A stretch of 64,000 bases of DNA from an uncultured Syntrophorhabdus sp. (GTDB taxonomy: Bacteria; Desulfobacterota; BSN033; UBA1163), in assembly GCA_964477935.1 (NCBI GenBank), contig CAYZFX010000003.1, positions 48,577-112,576 on the forward strand, in the 5' to 3' direction. A program made the position numbers and the translations under genes. Below, piece after piece: positions 1 to 25,745 of the stretch. Position 1 is the stretch's first letter, and each line of letters begins with the position of its first letter. The notes under the pieces are model-generated. The model was not told the DNA's origin. It saw nothing but the letters and a program-made list of their open reading frames with translations, and did not search any database.

Positions 1-1416
1 GATATTCTCAAAAGCAGGTATAGGAATGGGAAACAGGTGAAAGTCTTCACCATCGGAAGAGCAGGAGAAAACCTGGTCAAGTTTGCTGGGATCGGAAATG
101 ACAAGGGACATTTTGCAGGACGAACCGGGATGGGCGCCTTGATGGGGTCAAAGAAACTGAAGGCCATCGTCGTGCGTGGAAGCGGGTCATGCGAGCCAGC
201 AATGGTTGAAGAATACAATGCCCTCAGACGGGCGCTGATCGCAAAAGTCAATGCCTCTGTGCCTGCACAGGCGCTGAGGCAGATGGGAACCGATTCCGGC
301 ATGGACCTCGGAATGATGACCAACGATGTCCCTATCAAGAATTGGGTCTCTCCTCAGGATTTTGACCTTTCGTCAAATCTTGGAGGCCCCACCCTTACCG
401 AAAAGTATCTTGTGAAGCCCCATGCCTGTTATGCCTGTCCCATCGCGTGCAAGCGGGTGGTCAGGGTAGTCGACGGCCCTTATCAGACAGAGCAGGGACC
501 CGGACCTGAGTATGAGACCTGCTGCACCTTTGGCACGATGATCCTGAACAAAGACTTGGCAGGTGTCATCAAGGCAAATGAGCTCTGTAACAGGGCAGGC
601 ATGGACACCCTCTCAGGAGGGGTGGCCATTGCCTTTGCCTACGAATGCTACGAAAAAGGGATCCTCTCAAAGCAAGATACCGATGGTCTGAAGCTTAAAT
701 GGGGTGAAATCGATCCGGCCCTCCAATTGATTGAGATGATTCAGGAGAGAAAAGGAATAGGCGCGGTTTTAGCCGAGGGAACCAGAGAGGCCGCAAGACG
801 CATCGGAAGGGGAGCGGAGGAGTTCTTGGTCGAGGTGAAGGGGCTTGAGGCGCCCATGCACGACCCGAGGGGATATCATGGAATGGGCCTGGGTTATGCG
901 GTTTCGACAAGGGGAGCGTGCCATCTCCAGCACATGACACTCTATATAGAGCAGGGAATGTCAGCTTTCCCTGAGGCAGGGTTAAAGGCAAGTTACAGAG
1001 GTCCCGTCAGTGAAGGAAAGGCTCAGATGTACTTGATTTCCGAAAATCTTGGCGTCCCCTGCAATTCGGCTTGCCTCTGTATCTTCGTCCTCGGATGTCT
1101 TTCTGCGACTGACTTTGCAGAGATGTTGAGGGTAACAACCGGACACAAAGCGTTCGATGTCCAGGAACTGTTGAAATCCGGCCAGCGAATCAATCTTCTT
1201 AAAAGGACAATCAATTTCATCCTCGGAATGAGGAGAAAGGATGACCGATTGCCCAAAAGAATATTGACCCCCCTTGCCCCCGGAGAAAGCGTGCCTGACA
1301 TTGATCTGATGTTAAAGGAGTATTATGCGCTTCGAGGCCTGGATGAAACAGGCCGTCCGAAAAAGGAAACCCTTGAGGCCGCTGGCTTAAAAGATTTAAT
1401 TCCAAAACTCTATTGA
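1..1416 (+). CDS. Aldehyde:ferredoxin oxidoreductase (tungsten AOR family), 5' partial. The reading frame is open from base 1.
   Basis: The frame runs from the window start to a stop at 1414-1416. The translation resembles AOR-family C-terminal domains (KPHACYACPIACKR, GPEYE, GMDT motifs). The upstream part of the gene lies outside the window. Confidence 0.7.
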   Translation, partial: DILKSRYRNGKQVKVFTIGRAGENLVKFAGIGNDKGHFAGRTGMGALMGSKKLKAIVVRGSGSCEPAMVEEYNALRRALIAKVNASVPAQALRQMGTDSGMDLGMMTNDVPIKNWVSPQDFDLSSNLGGPTLTEKYLVKPHACYACPIACKRVVRVVDGPYQTEQGPGPEYETCCTFGTMILNKDLAGVIKANELCNRAGMDTLSGGVAIAFAYECYEKGILSKQDTDGLKLKWGEIDPALQLIEMIQERKGIGAVLAEGTREAARRIGRGAEEFLVEVKGLEAPMHDPRGYHGMGLGYAVSTRGACHLQHMTLYIEQGMSAFPEAGLKASYRGPVSEGKAQMYLISENLGVPCNSACLCIFVLGCLSATDFAEMLRVTTGHKAFDVQELLKSGQRINLLKRTINFILGMRRKDDRLPKRILTPLAPGESVPDIDLMLKEYYALRGLDETGRPKKETLEAAGLKDLIPKLY

Positions 1417-4901: not shown

Positions 4902-5945
4902 TTACTTCCAGTCTTCTGCCTTCTGGAATCTGTGTTGGGCGGCTTTGATCAGGCCCAATGGGCCGGTCATCATGGTGTTGCCGCCGGGAGCGGCAAACTT
5001 AAAGGGAAGGGAGGTTTCTTTAAAGAGGTCGCGGTTAGGGCCGGTGACCCATACGGAAACTTCTCCAGAAAAAGGAGTCAATGTGATCACTCCATGACCG
5101 TCATCCTCAAAAACCTCTTGCCTCGTCAATGCCCCTTGTGGGAAGCGGCGGAGGTGGTCCTCCAATTTTTTTGGAGTTAACCGGTGGGTATGGTGTTCGT
5201 AAAGCCCCTCAATCTTTCTGTTGATCAGAAGGGCAGCAATCGTATGGCCGTTCCCTGCATTAACAACCAGAGAGGGTTCCTTGATTTCATCCACGCATCC
5301 TAAAATAGCAGAAAAGGCCGTATCCATCACAAGGATAGGAGATAAGGAGGTCCTCCTCACTGCCTTTACGGCCGATTTCATCCGGAGATAACCATCCGGG
5401 ATGGAGGTCTCTGTGAAGTGAAACGACTCCGGCCGGTTATCTTTTTGCAACATCGCCTCCATCTGTTCAAAACGAAAGGTCCGATCGGAAACCTCTTTGG
5501 GGGCCACTCCGTGGTCCTGAACAGCGATGGCGATCACATCGAAGTTAAAATCCTCGCCGAATTGGTTGAGAAATCGCTGAAGGAGAGGAAGGTCAATTTC
5601 GCGGATCTCCAACTCTTGAAACCGGCCCGGACAGGGATTGGGCCCCACCTCGATGCCTATGGCCCGAACCTCCTCGATGTCATTCCGGATCGAATAGGCC
5701 GCAGATTCCTCCATCACCACCCGGTATCCCCTCTGAAGATGGCTTTGAATCGCCCTTCCAATCGATCCTCCGCCAATGGTATCCCCATAGAGATAGAGAT
5801 TCCCTTCGATCTTCCTGATCCTCTCGGCAAACACCTTCGAGGGGGTGGGCAGGACGAGGGTCGTGCAATTCTCGATCTTCTTGTTTGAATCGAAAAGGAG
5901 AATATCCTGTGTTCCTGCCCCGATATCGATGGCCAGAATTTTCAT
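4902..5945 (-). CDS. ASKHA-superfamily (actin/sugar-kinase/Hsp70-like) ATPase, DUF1786-like
   Basis: N-terminal phosphate-1 motif MKILAIDIGAGTQD and a later LVVNAGNGHT motif. The ORF track extends it to 6023, but the M at 5945 has a GGAGA Shine-Dalgarno while the 6023 ATG has none at usable spacing. Confidence 0.5.
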   Translation of the reverse strand: MKILAIDIGAGTQDILLFDSNKKIENCTTLVLPTPSKVFAERIRKIEGNLYLYGDTIGGGSIGRAIQSHLQRGYRVVMEESAAYSIRNDIEEVRAIGIEVGPNPCPGRFQELEIREIDLPLLQRFLNQFGEDFNFDVIAIAVQDHGVAPKEVSDRTFRFEQMEAMLQKDNRPESFHFTETSIPDGYLRMKSAVKAVRRTSLSPILVMDTAFSAILGCVDEIKEPSLVVNAGNGHTIAALLINRKIEGLYEHHTHRLTPKKLEDHLRRFPQGALTRQEVFEDDGHGVITLTPFSGEVSVWVTGPNRDLFKETSLPFKFAAPGGNTMMTGPLGLIKAAQHRFQKAEDWK

Positions 5946-6038
5946 CCCATCTCCAGGATCCGGAGTTTTAAGTTCAGTCTCTCCTTTTTCAGAAATATGT
6001 TCATCTCCATACTTCGAACTCATCCCTCCAAAGGCTCA

Positions 6039-7490
6039 TCACCCTTTGATCACCCCCATGGGCACCAGTTTGACCACTTTAAGGCTGATGCCTGCCTGGT
6101 GGACTACATTGACCACATCATTTACATCTTTATAGGCCTCTGGAATCTCTTCCTGGATCGTCCCTTTGCTGGCACCCATCACAATGATCCCCTTATCTTC
6201 CATCTCTCTCACGAGCGCCCTGCCCTTGGCCGCCTTGATGGCTTGGTGGCGACTCAACACCCTTCCGGCTCCATGGCAAGTTGACCCAAACGTCTCCTCC
6301 ATCGCCCTCTCCGTTCCGACCAGGACGTAAGAACATCGACCCATGTCGCCTGGGATGAGGACAGGCTGCCCGACCGTTTGGTAACCTCTTGGGATGTCCC
6401 GGTGATGAGGTGGAAAGGCCCGGGTCGCTCCTTTCCGATGAACACAAACTCTCCTTTCTTCTCCATTGACCGAATGGGTCTCAATCTTAGCAATATTATG
6501 GCAGACGTCATAGACCAGACTGAGGCCGACGTCCCGCGGACCCCTCTGGAAGACCTGTTCAAAGGTCTCCCTCACCCAGTGGGAGATCATCTGCCGGTTG
6601 GCAAAGGCATAATTGGCGGCACATGCCATCGCTTGAAGATATCGCTCCCCTTCCGGCGAGGTGACAGGAGCGCAGCAGAGCTGAGGATCGGGTAGCTCGA
6701 TGCCGTACTTTTTCGCTGCATTCATCATCACCCGGATATAATCGTCACAGACCTGATGTCCTAAACCCCTTGAGCCGGTATGGACGAGAATGGTCACTTG
6801 GTCCTTCCATAATCCAAAGGTTTGTGCAACCCGTTCATCGAAGACCTCCGCCACATATCCCACCTCTACAAAGTGATTTCCGGACCCGACGGTCCCCAAT
6901 TGGGCCTTTCCCCTTTCCAAGGCCTTTTCAGAGATCTGATCTGGGTCGGCCCCTTCGATACAGCCCGACTCCTCGATGTGTTCGAGATCCTCTACCGTTC
7001 CAAAACCCCTTTCAACCGCCCATCTGGCCCCCTTTTTGAAGACCTGTCTCTCTTCATCCTTACTCAATCTGAGATCCTTCCGATGGGAACCTACGCCCGA
7101 AGGGATGTTGTGAAAGAGGGCTCCTACCAGCTCTTTCATCCTGCCCTCGATCTCCTTGCGGCTCAGACCTGAGCGCATCAGCCTGACCCCTCAGTTGATA
7201 TCATATCCGACCCCTCCGGGCGAAACGATGCCCTCATTCAGATCGAAAGCCGCCACCCCGCCGATGGGAAAACCGTACCCCCAGTGGATATCTGGCATGG
7301 CCAGAGAGGGACCGACGATTCCTGGTAGCCAGGCGACATGGGCGACCTGAGAGAGGCTCTGATCCTTGCGGATATCCTCCAGCATCCTTTCGTCCGCATA
7401 GACGATCCCATCGGTCCTCATCTTCCCCTCCTGTGGAATCCTCCACCGGTAGTCGTCGACCTTCTGGATTTTGATCTTCTCATCACCCAT
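6039..7490 (-). CDS. rtcB: RNA-splicing ligase RtcB, read through one in-frame TGA (7191-7193) as a putative selenocysteine
   Basis: ORFs 7191..7490 (RtcB N-terminus, [13 protein letters not shown]...GGVGYDIN) and 6039..7178 (RtcB C-terminus, [18 protein letters not shown]) are in the same frame. They are separated only by a TGA aligned with the conserved metal-ligand Cys of DINCGVRL. A GGUC-loop hairpin follows at 7157-7177. Confidence 0.75.
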
Positions 7491-7510
7491 CGTCTCTCAC
7501 CCCTTTCCTT

Positions 7511-7969
7511 TCAGAGATCCAGGATTACCCTGGCCTTCCATTCTCCATCCCTTTGTTTGACCTCGATCTGATGGTAGGTGACCGCCTTCACCACGGTTTT
7601 GATCTCGTGGATCTCCTCCTGAAAGAACTCTCCCTTAACGACCGCCCGCAGACCCTCCCCACCCACGGATTGAATGTCAAATCGATTGAAGAGGAGGGTT
7701 TCAACCTCATGGAGATAGAGGAGTTCGTTCAACCACTCGACCATCAATCGTTCCAGAGGCGCGGGAGGAAGCTCGATCAACCGCTCCTCTCTGGGCCTGA
7801 CCTTCTTAATATCGGTGATCAGGCTGAAGAAGGCCTCTCCCGCATTCTCAAAGAGGGTTTTAAGATCCTTCCCGTAAATGATCAATCCGATATCGGCCGT
7901 GTGATCGAGGATCTCAAAATGCCTCCCCTCCCTCCCAGTTCTAGCCCCTGAATGTGACGGTGATGCCAA
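7511..7969 (-). CDS. Archease (RtcB activator)
   Basis: 152 aa with the archease motif FEILDHTADIG. It sits 20 nt upstream of rtcB on the same strand. Confidence 0.8.
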   Translation of the reverse strand: MASPSHSGARTGREGRHFEILDHTADIGLIIYGKDLKTLFENAGEAFFSLITDIKKVRPREERLIELPPAPLERLMVEWLNELLYLHEVETLLFNRFDIQSVGGEGLRAVVKGEFFQEEIHEIKTVVKAVTYHQIEVKQRDGEWKARVILDL

Positions 7970-7972
7970 TGC

Positions 7973-8398
7973 TTAACCTGTTCTCTTCCTTTCAACCCTT
8001 GAAAGGAAAGACTCTTTCGAAACTAAGACCCTCTCATGCTCGCCTTCAGCCACCTTCTCCTTCTCATCATAGGCGTCCACCAGAAAGAAGAGCCGGTTAC
8101 CCTGGACCTCTTTCAGTAGGGCATGACTGACCACCCTCATCCCGGGAGGGGTGGGAGCCAGATGTCTCATCCTGATCCAGGTTCCGAGGCTCAACCGGTC
8201 TGGAGGAAGGACTTCCTGAATGGCTCGAATCGCCGCCTCCTCCAGAAGCTGAATCAATCTTGGGGTCGAGAGGACGTGGAGCGGAAGATCCCCTATGTGG
8301 CTGACCAGATCCTCCTCTTTCACGATCATCTCGGCTTTTCCAGTCAATCCTGGCACCATCACGATGTACTCCTTTTCGCCCCAGGGTTTATGAGACAT
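7973..8398 (-). CDS. Hotdog-fold thioesterase family protein
   Basis: 141 aa with pattern resembling small acyl-CoA thioesterases. It lies 3 nt from the archease start. Confidence 0.5.
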   Translation of the reverse strand: MSHKPWGEKEYIVMVPGLTGKAEMIVKEEDLVSHIGDLPLHVLSTPRLIQLLEEAAIRAIQEVLPPDRLSLGTWIRMRHLAPTPPGMRVVSHALLKEVQGNRLFFLVDAYDEKEKVAEGEHERVLVSKESFLSRVERKRTG

Positions 8399-8414
8399 CC
8401 CTCCGATTTTACCG

Positions 8415-8864
8415 TCAGAATTCGGTCAGGACCTCGCTGTCATAGATCTTTTCCAGCCTTTCCTTATGGGTTGACTCTTCCTGGGCAAGGAACAGCAACA
8501 GTTTTTTCATGTCCGAATCCGTAACCAGCTGTGCAGTGGATTCATAAAGCCTCTGGGATTTCTCCTCGTTCTTGATCGCCGCCCTCAGTAGCTCCCCGTA
8601 GGTCAATCCCGGACCGAAGGGGATGTCCTCAATGATTTCGCTGATCCCCAGACCCTTCGTCTCCCTCACCTCTACCTGACCGACCTGGCTGAGGTCCAAT
8701 TGTTCAAGCCTCCGACGATGGCCCTCCTCTTCCTTGGCCAGTTCCTCGAAGAATTTCTTCACCCCGGGTCTGGATTGATCGGCAGCGATCCTGTAAGTGG
8801 CTGCCGCATCGGCTTCCTTTCGAATCGCAAACCTCAAAATCTCTTCCACGCTATTCAGTCTCAT
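8415..8864 (-). CDS. Ferritin-like / rubrerythrin-family diiron protein
   Basis: 149 aa with two E-x-x-H motifs (EEEGHRRRLEQ and EESTHKERLEK) typical of ferritin-like diiron centres. Confidence 0.55.
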   Translation of the reverse strand: MRLNSVEEILRFAIRKEADAAATYRIAADQSRPGVKKFFEELAKEEEGHRRRLEQLDLSQVGQVEVRETKGLGISEIIEDIPFGPGLTYGELLRAAIKNEEKSQRLYESTAQLVTDSDMKKLLLFLAQEESTHKERLEKIYDSEVLTEF

Positions 8865-12342: not shown

Positions 12343-12780
12343 ATGTACAAGAAGATCTTGGTCCCCCTCGATGGGTCGGAGCTGGCGAAAAAGGCCCTGG
12401 ATCAAGCCGAGAGGTTAGCGGTCCACTTCGGTTCGGAAATCATCCTCTTCGAGGTCGTTCCCTATCTGCCGATCTACGGCTCGCCTGAGCTGGTCACGCC
12501 CCTGGTGATCGACGAGAAGCAGAAGGAGGGGGCCGAACGGTATCTTCAAGAGCTGGCAGAAGAGGTGAGGAAGAAAGGTCTCCGGGTGTCGGCGATGGTG
12601 AAGACAGGGCATCAGGTCGCTGTGGAGATCATCGATTACGCGAAGGAGATCGGAGCAGACCTGATCGTCATGTGCACCCACGGCCGATCCGGAATAACCC
12701 GATGGGTCCTCGGAAGCATCGCCCTGAAGGTCTTGACCAGGGCCGAGACCCCAATCCTTTTAATTCGATCCAAAGAGTGA
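12343..12780 (+). CDS. Universal stress protein UspA family
   Basis: 145 aa with the Usp ATP-binding motif (MCTHGRSGITRWVLGS). GGAGG RBS before the ATG. Confidence 0.85.
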   Translation: MYKKILVPLDGSELAKKALDQAERLAVHFGSEIILFEVVPYLPIYGSPELVTPLVIDEKQKEGAERYLQELAEEVRKKGLRVSAMVKTGHQVAVEIIDYAKEIGADLIVMCTHGRSGITRWVLGSIALKVLTRAETPILLIRSKE

Positions 12781-23166: not shown

Positions 23167-24219
23167 TTAAGCCCTTCCATGTTTCAATCCTGAACTATAT
23201 TCGTGGACGATATCGATCAGGGCCGAGACATGTTCAACCGGCGTCTCCGGTAAGATGCCATGGCCCAGGTTGAAGATATGGCCAGGACGGCCCGAAGCCT
23301 TTTTCAGAATCCGTTTGACCTCTTTCCGGATCAAACTCAAGGGTCCGAAGAGGACGACGGGATCGAGATTCCCCTGGATGCCGACATCGTAACCGATGCG
23401 TTCCCAGGCCTCGTCGAGATCGATCCTCCAGTCCACGCCGATCACGTCGCCCCCTGCCTTCTTCATCAATGGAAGGAGGGCTGAGGTGGAGGTGCCGAAG
23501 TGGATGACCGGGACCTCCCGACCTAAACTGCTCAACACCCTTTTCGAATAGGGATAGACGAACTCCCCGTAATCCTCAGGGCTCAGACATCCCACCCAGG
23601 AGTCGAATATCTGGAGGGCCTGCACCCCTGCCCGGATCTGTGCTTTGAGGTATTGAACGAGCACGTCCGAGATCTTCTTCATCAGAAGGTCCCAGACCTG
23701 AGGAGACCGGTACATCATCGTCTTGGTGCGGATGTAGTCCCTCGAATGTCCGCCCTCGATGAGGTAACTGGCGAGGGTGAAGGGGGCCCCTGAGAATCCG
23801 ATCAGAGGCAGTCTCCCGTCCAGCTTCCTTCGCACCAGACGGATCGCCTCAAACAGGAAGGGAACCTCTTCTTCGGGATCGATGACCCTCAATCGCTCCA
23901 CATCCTTCATCTCCCTAAGGGGGTGATGAAAGACTGGGCCCTCCCCTTTGGCAAATTCGAAGCCTGCGCCCATCGGTGCCAGAGGGATGAGGATGTCCGA
24001 GAAGATGATGGCCGCATCGAGTTTGAACTTTTCAACGGGCTGGAGCGTGACCTCTGCAGCGATCGCTGGATTCTGGCACATCTCCAAAAAAGAGAATCGC
24101 CTCCGGAGGGCCCGGTACTCCTTTAGGTAGCGGCCCGCCTGCCGCATCAGCCAGACGGGTGTAAAGGGAGTGGGCTCCCTCCGGCAGGCCTTGAGAAATG
24201 GATGATCCGGCTCTTTCAT
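23167..24219 (-). CDS. hemE: Uroporphyrinogen decarboxylase
   Basis: The HemE N-terminal signature PVWLMRQAGRYL starts at the M at 24219. The 442 aa ORF-track extension overlaps pepA and lacks homology. Confidence 0.85.
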   Translation of the reverse strand: MKEPDHPFLKACRREPTPFTPVWLMRQAGRYLKEYRALRRRFSFLEMCQNPAIAAEVTLQPVEKFKLDAAIIFSDILIPLAPMGAGFEFAKGEGPVFHHPLREMKDVERLRVIDPEEEVPFLFEAIRLVRRKLDGRLPLIGFSGAPFTLASYLIEGGHSRDYIRTKTMMYRSPQVWDLLMKKISDVLVQYLKAQIRAGVQALQIFDSWVGCLSPEDYGEFVYPYSKRVLSSLGREVPVIHFGTSTSALLPLMKKAGGDVIGVDWRIDLDEAWERIGYDVGIQGNLDPVVLFGPLSLIRKEVKRILKKASGRPGHIFNLGHGILPETPVEHVSALIDIVHEYSSGLKHGRA

Positions 24220-24248
24220 TTTCTGACCCTTCCTCTCCTCCCCGCACG

Positions 24249-25745
24249 TCAGGATCGACCCCAATCTCTCAGCAACTGGATCACCAACCTCACACCGACT
24301 CCGGTGCCTCCCTTCGGAAGGTAGGGTCTCTCCTTCTCGATAAAGGCCGGTCCCGCGATGTCGAGGTGGACCCAGGGCGTCTTCTCCACGAACCTGCTCA
24401 GGAACATTCCACCGATGATCGTCCCAGCGGCGCGGGTCCCCACATTCCTGAAGTCGGCCGTATCGCTTTTGAGGTAGTCGAAATATTCCTCCCATAGGGG
24501 GAGGCGCCAGACCTTCTCGCCCACCTTATGGGAGGCCTCTTCTACCCTCTTCACCAGGCCCTCGTCATTCCCCATCATCCCGATGACATAATCTCCCAGG
24601 GCGATGATGCAGGCCCCGGTGAGCGTGGCCAGATCGATGATCGCCTTTGGCTGATACCGGAGGCTATAGGTCAGGGCATCGGCCAGGATGAGGCGCCCCT
24701 CCGCATCCGTGCTGATGACCTCCACGGTCTGACCGGAGAGGGTTTTCAAGACATCGCCCGGCTTATAGGCCTTTCCGCTCGGAAGATTCTCCGTGGCTGG
24801 GATGATACCCACCAGATGGAGGGGGATGCGAAGCTGAGCCGCCGCCTGCATGGCGCCGAGCACGGCAGCGGCCCCGGACATGTCGTCCTTCATCCGTTCC
24901 ATCCCCTCCGAGGGCTTGATCGAGATCCCGCCGCTGTCGAAGGTGATTCCTTTGCCCAGGAGGGCGATCGTATCCAGCTCCTTTCCTTTATTATATTCAA
25001 GGACGATAAACTTTGCGGGCTCCTGGCTCCCTTTGGCCACGGCCACAAAGGCTCCCATGCCCATCGCTTCGGCTTCGTCAAGATCGAGGACCTGGACCTC
25101 GAGGTCATGCTCCGCCGCGATCTGTCTGGCTTTCTCGGCCAGCACCGTCGGTGTAATGCTATTGCTTGGACCATTGACCAGGTCCCTTGCCATGCAGACC
25201 GCCGACGAGATCCACTCTCCTCTCCTCGCCCCCTCCTCGATGAGCCGGATCTCCTCATCTGTCTCGCCGAGGAGGATGACCTCGTCGACCGTCTTGATCT
25301 TTTCCCGATCCCGGGTCTTCAACTCATGAAACTGATAGAGCCCGAGGACGAGACCTGTGACAAAGTTCTCTGCGAGTTCTTCTTCCGGATAGTCCTTCAG
25401 CCTCTTCAATTCACAGGCAAACTGTTTGAGACCGATCTCCCGAACCAACTGCCCGGCCTTGGAGACCACCCCCCTCCATCGTTCCAGGTCGAACTCCTCC
25501 CTCTTCCCGAGCCCCGCGAGGAGGACCCTTTTAGCCGGAATGGCCTTCTGGGTATGGACCAGCCGGCACTGAAACAACTCTCCTCTGAAATCCCCCTGGC
25601 TGATCAGGTCGGAGAGAAATCCCTCCCACTCCCGATCCACCTCTTGGGTCGGTCCTTCAAGGGGTTCTGGCACCTCGAAAGAAAAAAGGAGGAGAACCTC
25701 ACAGGGGAACCTTTTTGCCTGACCCTTCATGACTCGAATCTTCAT
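24249..25745 (-). CDS. pepA: Leucyl aminopeptidase (M17 family)
   Basis: 498 aa with the M17 signature NTDAEGRL and metal-binding residues. Confidence 0.85.
   Translation of the reverse strand: MKIRVMKGQAKRFPCEVLLLFSFEVPEPLEGPTQEVDREWEGFLSDLISQGDFRGELFQCRLVHTQKAIPAKRVLLAGLGKREEFDLERWRGVVSKAGQLVREIGLKQFACELKRLKDYPEEELAENFVTGLVLGLYQFHELKTRDREKIKTVDEVILLGETDEEIRLIEEGARRGEWISSAVCMARDLVNGPSNSITPTVLAEKARQIAAEHDLEVQVLDLDEAEAMGMGAFVAVAKGSQEPAKFIVLEYNKGKELDTIALLGKGITFDSGGISIKPSEGMERMKDDMSGAAAVLGAMQAAAQLRIPLHLVGIIPATENLPSGKAYKPGDVLKTLSGQTVEVISTDAEGRLILADALTYSLRYQPKAIIDLATLTGACIIALGDYVIGMMGNDEGLVKRVEEASHKVGEKVWRLPLWEEYFDYLKSDTADFRNVGTRAAGTIIGGMFLSRFVEKTPWVHLDIAGPAFIEKERPYLPKGGTGVGVRLVIQLLRDWGRS

Follow-up and report, generated by a model that had tools for sequence, protein, structure and literature searches.

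A probable SECIS hairpin after an in-frame UGA codon of rtcB in an uncultured Syntrophorhabdus

The stretch of DNA analysed here (the window, 64,000 nucleotides (nt) of contig CAYZFX010000003.1, assembly GCA_964477935.1, from an uncultured Syntrophorhabdus sp.) carries on its minus strand an rtcB gene with an in-frame UGA codon. Shortly after this codon, and still inside the reading frame, lies a hairpin which had been proposed as a selenocysteine insertion sequence (SECIS), that is, as the signal for reading the UGA as selenocysteine (Sec). RtcB is a 3'-phosphate/5'-OH RNA ligase, which serves in tRNA splicing and RNA repair. The features of the locus are given below. In our numbering the U of the UGA is +1, and the window coordinate of position +n is 7194 - n.

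6036..6041, minus strand: true terminator of rtcB, tandem UGA UGA, read from the sequence
6042..7190, minus strand: rtcB, stretch 3' of the UGA, 383 codons in the same frame, ending ...VIKG
7157..7165, minus strand: 3' arm of the hairpin, +29..+37, UGAG-C-CGCA, with the bulged C at +33 (7161)
7166..7169, minus strand: apical tetraloop GGUC, +25..+28, matching the loop of E. coli fdhF
7170..7177, minus strand: 5' arm of the hairpin, +17..+24, UGCGCUCA, identified by folding and by pairing kept in orthologues with both sides changing
7178..7190, minus strand: spacer from the UGA to the hairpin base, 13 nt, +4..+16, GGGGUCAGGCUGA
7191..7193, minus strand: in-frame UGA, the proposed Sec codon, at the conserved Cys position (P. 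horikoshii Cys98)
7194..7490, minus strand: rtcB, stretch 5' of the recoded codon, 99 codons, ending ...GGVGYDIN (open reading frame (ORF) list; Pfam RtcB PF01139)
7511..7969, minus strand: archease gene, upstream of rtcB (NCBIfam PRK00407, E = 6.5e-42; Pfam Archease)

The rtcB gene starts at 7490 on the minus strand. Its N-terminal part aligned to residues 14-113 of T. thermophilus RtcB (2epg), and when Cys was set at the UGA, the fused product of 483 amino acids matched RtcB from end to end (E = 1.5e-186 with 2epg and E = 3e-177 with P. horikoshii 1uc2). The UGA aligned with the conserved Cys in the DIN-C-GVRL motif of solved RtcB structures, and close rtcB homologues also have Cys at this position. 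The conserved residue is numbered Cys98 in P. horikoshii (PMC4150793). The archease gene lies on the same strand, separated from rtcB by a gap of 20 nt. Archease is the usual partner of RtcB. Full-length similarity, the conserved Cys position and the adjacent archease gene all identify the product as RtcB.

Public gene calls break rtcB at the UGA into two ORFs, and the identical TGA was present in two independent assemblies. Both rtcB and the archease gene terminate in UGA. It means that UGA is an ordinary stop codon in this genome, and therefore the internal UGA of rtcB needs a local signal.

On the mRNA (minus strand) the codons GAU AUC AAC are followed by UGA GGG GUC AGG CUG AUG CGC UCA GGU CUG AGC CGC AAG. 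The whole hairpin occupies +17..+37 (7177..7157) as UGCGCUCA-GGUC-UGAG-C-CGCA, with 8 base pairs (bp) and one bulged C, and it is read in frame as M-R-S-G-L-S-R. The 21-mer alone folded as ((((((((....)))).)))) at -8.5 kcal/mol. Direct reading and this fold bear out the original prediction as to the hairpin sequence, the 8-bp stem with a bulged C and the GGUC loop. In a 33-nt context (+13..+45) the same hairpin was the minimum-energy fold, at -9.6 kcal/mol. When the peptide of the window was recoded synonymously with the gene's own codon usage, 14 of 2000 recodings were as stable (z = -2.57).

The bacterial SECIS consensus (bSECISearch model, in PMC13188914) asks for 3-9 nt in the loop and 4-16 bp in the stem, with a minimum free energy of -7.5 kcal/mol or lower. 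At least one of the two bases which open the loop is a G (typically GG or GU), and 16-37 nt separate the loop from the UGA. The hairpin of the window agrees with it in all four structural respects, having a loop of 4 nt, a stem of 8 bp, GG at the start of the loop and 21 nt (+4..+24) before it, and also in its energy of -8.5 kcal/mol. This model is deliberately loose, necessary but not specific, and the weight of the argument rests on comparative data.

A protein search was made with the 99-amino-acid N-terminal part as query, and the best 120 matches were considered. Nearly all of them were products of about 99-100 amino acids, and the 20 sequences retrieved from this search all end in GGVGYDIN (20/20). 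Genomes, one per species, were also scanned with the pattern GG(V/I)G(Y/F)DIN-TGA, with the downstream sequence unconstrained. Among the 120 matches listed, 113 were true rtcB genes with TGA at the Cys codon and continuing as GVR... Such genes were found in Thermodesulfobacteriota/Deltaproteobacteria, Acidobacteriota, Binatia, Gemmatimonadales, Eisenbacteria, Polyangiaceae and Nitrospirota.

After duplicates were removed, 85 non-redundant UGA-carrying rtcB sequences, including that of the window, made up class 1. In 82 of the 85 there was a hairpin which had 5 bp or more and its loop within +24..+30. The mean local folding energy was -10.4 kcal/mol in class 1 against -4.4 kcal/mol in Cys-encoding forms, and the mean z for synonymous recoding was -1.39 and -0.12, respectively. 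The hairpin is not a simple consequence of the protein sequence. Synonymous sites of the spacer varied freely across orthologues.

On the ungapped alignment of the 85 sequences the predicted structure was 80% paired, compared with 45% or less when the 3' partners were slid. In the same alignment 28 cells were changed on both sides, a number which was reached by 0 of 500 shuffles. Three registers could be distinguished: the window type, NNN UCA GGN YUG AGC NNN, with a tetraloop and bulged +33 (n = 39); a hexaloop type, CGC UCC GKG YUG AGC GNN (n = 26); and a pentaloop type, NNN NCC GGN YUG GNN NNN (n = 20). Across them there were about 60 distinct stem variants, and 75 of the 85 sequences had at least 5 contiguous bp. 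The pentaloop subset had 89% of cells paired and double changes in 4 of 8 pairs; being picked by register, it is favoured in the percentage paired and not in the double changes. Stems have been exchanged wholesale between lineages (GCGCUCA/UGAGCCGC, GAAGACC/GGUCUUC, GAGAACC/GGUUCUC, GCGCACC/GGUGCG and GCGCUCC/GGAGCGC), and the encoded peptide shifts with the pairing kept (RSGLSR, KTGLVF, RTGLVL, RTGLVR, RSGLER, RSVLSV). In the loop, +25 was G in 77 and +26 was G in 74 of the class-1 sequences.

RNAalifold over all 85 sequences gave no single consensus fold because three registers are mixed in them, and on class-1 subsets it did recover the hairpin. The condition originally set to refute the proposal, UGA-carrying orthologues without any comparable structure, did not arise: the hairpin is present in 82 of 85 class-1 sequences, with compensatory changes. 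Two other folds of the region were tried as candidates and rejected: for a 5' hairpin (+5..+34) all covariation measures were below the shuffle mean, and a 3' fold (+17..+52) was kept in 1 of the 85 sequences.

A different architecture was found in 27 UGA-carrying rtcB sequences of Nitrospirota/Thermodesulfovibrionia (L010, L013, L014, L075 and 23 others), which were without the class-1 hairpin. These genes have a three-tier long stem over +4..+66 (-24 to -36 kcal/mol), with the apical loop at about +31..+39 and no GGUC loop. Compared with the hairpin of the window, this stem follows the same codon of the same gene, in frame, but would do the same work with a different architecture. UGA-carrying rtcB orthologues thus appear never to be without a downstream structure, the design of which seems to differ by lineage, as expected if the structure co-evolves with SelB. 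Two other RNA elements were noted near rtcB in orthologous loci, a c-di-GMP-I-GGC riboswitch (L095, 3654-3733) and a bacterial RNase P RNA (L014, 5626-6004).

For control, metagenomes were searched with the same pattern ending in TGY, and 91 of the rtcB genes with a Cys codon were usable. Six of these unrelated genes had a hairpin in register with 5 bp or more, and the other 85 had none; among G+C-matched Cys controls such a hairpin was found in 5 of 25. The S/T-G-L motif was present in 0 of the 91 randomly fetched Cys forms.

A full-length protein search also gave Cys-encoding homologues with 69-83% identity, many of them with the window's own peptide, and DNA was compared for eight close Cys homologues and two Brocadiaceae genes. 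The close Cys loci (L243-L251) keep CGC UCA GGN YUG AGC CGC at codons +6..+11 while neighbouring synonymous sites vary: Arg+3 is written with four different codons, and Arg+6 and Arg+11 are CGC (CGU once). The two Cys-only Brocadiaceae genes, which are 71-72% identical to any Sec form, keep 3-5 bp. Of the eight Cys forms with the hairpin, five have a Sec form as their closest relative (79-92% identity). The remaining three are listed next to a near-identical Cys form of their own cluster, so that their comparison is uninformative. In two Cys forms with the hairpin, the N-terminus matches a truncated fragment of a Sec form with 100% identity. A rough neighbour-joining tree of 156 sequences, which is indicative only as sampling was biased, requires at least 15 Sec/Cys changes.

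Some genes which once encoded selenoproteins are known to keep remnant SECIS-like structures after their Cys codons (Zhang et al. 2006, PMC1794560). The Cys-encoding rtcB genes nested among Sec forms are like the FdhA and HesB-like cases of that study in keeping the hairpin, but the retention in all nine loci with nearly no decay looks more persistent than a simple fossil. The hairpin in close Cys relatives is probably a remnant SECIS left by frequent, recent Sec/Cys switching, and it may still be under selection in Cys alleles. As a separate observation, one metagenome locus with a Cys-encoding rtcB (L237) has a tRNA-Sec gene with anticodon tca at 7172-7269.

From these comparisons, the hairpin at 7177-7157 (minus strand) is very probably a bacterial SECIS inside the rtcB reading frame, and this reading is settled by the comparison of orthologues, not by single-sequence folding. 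With the UGA (7193-7191) in the A site, the 13-nt spacer would occupy the mRNA channel, and the 8-bp stem capped by the GGUC loop would stand at the channel entrance. There the C-terminal winged-helix domains of SelB would bind the loop and the upper stem. SelB-GTP-Sec-tRNA(Sec) would in this way be tethered near the A site and would outcompete release factor 2, with the Sec machinery presumed to be present in the organism. Sec would be placed where other RtcB proteins have the conserved Cys98-type residue, which we take to be the metal-binding active-site Cys and a ligand of the catalytic Mn2+ ions. The ribosome would then melt the hairpin, read Met-Arg-Ser-Gly-Leu-Ser-Arg and complete a full-length Sec-RtcB of 483 amino acids. 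According to the SelB structure paper (PMC4605307), a SECIS hairpin has a stem of 6-8 bp, and its loop carries a conserved G at about 20 nt from the UGA. Winged-helix domains 3 and 4 hold the hairpin at the mRNA entrance, and a hinge of SelB takes up differences in spacing. In its stem and its loop G the hairpin of the window fits this description.

Several results speak against a SECIS at this place. In the other check set at the outset, the hairpin was thermodynamically favoured as the 21-mer and in +13..+45, but not in free mRNA in contexts of 44-111 nt, where the hairpin was not the minimum-energy fold and other folds won. One competitor is a 5' hairpin (+5..+34) at -14.3 kcal/mol, and in another, on the 3' side, +17..+34 pairs with +39..+52. 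The pair probability of the hairpin was about 0.01 in +1..+80 and about 1 in +13..+45, and it was about 0.6 once the first 15 nt were removed, which mimics a ribosome standing on the UGA. Against dinucleotide shuffles the 21-mer had z = -1.69, with 14 of 200 shuffles equally stable. Folding of the single sequence was rejected as a decisive test, as the outcome varies with the context. The loop GG and the closing UG are fixed by the conserved Gly-Leu codons as well, so that these bases are confounded with the protein sequence. All nine close Cys-form loci (eight distinct proteins, 71-83% identical to the RtcB of the window) keep the hairpin with the same fold; because close Cys relatives keep the hairpin codons, the hairpin is not exclusive to UGA alleles.

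Other points on the same side come from comparison with known elements and from the window itself. The E. coli SelB needs the bulged U17, the fdhF loop base G23 contacts SelB together with U17, and G23 and U24 are the conserved loop bases (PMC8659212). The hairpin here has no 5' bulged U17: UGCGCUCA is fully paired, and the 3' strand has the single bulge, C33. No relevant Rfam family (release 15) matched the window at gathering score, or the surroundings of the site at E values as high as 10, and in 18 orthologous loci there was neither a SECIS match nor one to any other family of relevance. In the 64-kb window there was no tRNA-Sec, no selA, selB or selD (a Pfam scan covered ten of the larger ORFs only), and no second convincing UGA-split gene.

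Explanations other than a SECIS were weighed against the same data. The hairpin might be kept in Sec and Cys alleles alike for a role which is not SelB binding or is additional to it, such as ribosome pausing during folding of the metal site, mRNA stability or regulation. This would account for the nine of nine close Cys loci which keep the hairpin codons nearly unchanged among varying synonymous sites, but we regard it as improbable: 85 of 91 unrelated Cys-encoding genes lack the hairpin in register, the distant Cys-only genes of Brocadiaceae keep 3-5 bp only, a Sec form is the closest relative of five of the eight Cys forms with the hairpin and in two the N-terminus is identical to a Sec-form fragment, remnant SECIS after Cys codons are documented (PMC1794560), and the geometry and loop are close to the SECIS consensus. 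The possibility that the hairpin has no function at the RNA level and is just a by-product of the near-palindromic peptide Arg-Ser-Gly-Leu-Ser-Arg and codon bias is quite improbable. It is true that conserved Gly and Leu codons supply G25/G26 and U29/G30, that z against dinucleotide shuffles is only -1.69 and that the fdhF-like 8-mer occurs several times in the window. However, only 14 of 2000 synonymous recodings were as stable, the pairing is kept through peptide changes (Ser/Ser to Thr/Val to Ser/Glu, and Arg/Arg to Lys/Phe), and the S/T-G-L motif is in 0 of 91 Cys forms.

The UGA itself might be a real stop, with rtcB being a pseudogene or giving two polypeptides of 99 and 379 amino acids, the second one from the AUG at 7178. 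The public annotations with two ORFs, the AUG four codons past the UGA and the window without visible Sec machinery are in line with this. Against it, TGA stands exactly at the conserved Cys codon in at least 113 species, and the protein is strongly conserved on both sides of it; a split would also remove the conserved Cys98-type residue. Furthermore, most orthologues have Leu, Val or Ile at the Met position, so there is no shared restart codon, and we consider a real stop very unlikely. Equally unlikely is a recoding of the UGA, aided by the hairpin, to a residue other than Sec, for example Cys. Insertion of Cys by a tRNA(Sec)-like tRNA and a SelB-like factor has been proposed for some Deltaproteobacteria, sequence data cannot tell the inserted residue, and Sec and Cys alleles interconvert often. 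Yet in the many phyla of this clade a UGA with a hairpin is known to serve ordinary Sec decoding, and no evidence of such a Cys-inserting system was found in this analysis.

As a bacterial SECIS the hairpin would be ordinary in kind, and its host gene is the new part. Full-text literature searches gave no natural Sec-RtcB, and the only link found was an engineered P. horikoshii RtcB U98, which cleaved itself (PMC4150793). A 2026 inventory lists 119 families and subfamilies of prokaryotic selenoproteins, RtcB not among them, and NCBIfam has no selenoprotein model for RtcB. Sec-RtcB is probably uncatalogued, with some recent sources (Deng et al. 2026, Haft and Tolstoy 2025) outside our coverage.

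Should the hairpin act as a SECIS, RtcB would be a further selenoprotein, with selenium at the conserved Cys98-type position, and many database 'RtcB' fragments of about 100 amino acids (nearly all of the best 120 matches) would be mis-annotated halves of a selenoenzyme. To our knowledge, Sec-RtcB would be the first selenoenzyme acting on RNA, and the Sec-metal sites that we know of involve Mo/W or Ni. The cysteine of eukaryotic RtcB is sensitive to oxidation, which would point to an advantage of Sec that can be tested. The family would also be a compact natural data set in which one peptide segment is re-encoded to hold an RNA signal, with three stem registers and a distinct Nitrospirota design, and with the signal kept through frequent Sec/Cys switching. 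A wider proposal, to which we give somewhat less than even weight, is that Sec-RtcB is an uncatalogued multi-phylum selenoprotein family with Se in place of the sulfur of the active-site Cys and with SECIS in at least four architectures, the hairpin serving as a 'recoding-ready' toggle between UGA and UGY.

Some further observations concern the residue and its surroundings. The residue at the UGA corresponds to Cys98 of P. horikoshii RtcB, where an intein has its splice junction, and the NCBIfam model 'intein-containing RtcB' matched the rtcB of the window in two stretches, the better of which starts at residue 99. The gene order on the source contig is rubrerythrin, FlK-like protein, archease, rtcB and DUF1786 (window 4902-8864, minus strand), and the order archease-rtcB-DUF1786 recurs beside several Cys-encoding rtcB genes (among L242-L246). 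Elsewhere in the window two long ORFs on the same strand (23167-24495 and 24249-25745, minus strand) overlap by about 250 nt, which may reflect a frameshift, overlapping genes or an artefact in the ORFs.

The known element with which the hairpin had been compared is the SECIS of fdhF. The region of codon 140 in E. coli K-12 fdhF reads UGA CAC GGC CCA UCG GUU GCA GGU CUG CAC C. The claimed identity with the apical core is correct, as the 8-mer CAGGUCUG is common to both, and they are also alike in the GGUC tetraloop closed by A-U, in the codon phase NCA GGU CUG and in lying in the reading frame directly after the Sec UGA. Taken by itself, the shared 8-mer was rejected as significant (4 in the window against 1.9 expected). 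The three further copies of CAGGTCTG are at 6748-6755 (inside rtcB), 12656-12663 and 23693-23700 (minus strand), and none of them follows an in-frame TGA as far as checked.

The spacing is one codon longer than in fdhF, as had been stated: the loop is at +25..28 here and at +22..25 in fdhF (3 nt further), and the hairpin base is 13 nt from the UGA here and 11 nt in fdhF. The hairpin of the window also has no conserved lower stem reaching to the UGA, whereas the minimal hairpin of fdhF lies inside an extended stem of about 40 nt, and the host gene encodes an RNA ligase and not a Mo/W oxidoreductase. Judged from its sequence, the hairpin in rtcB would act like the fdhF SECIS but would not be of the E. 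coli subtype.

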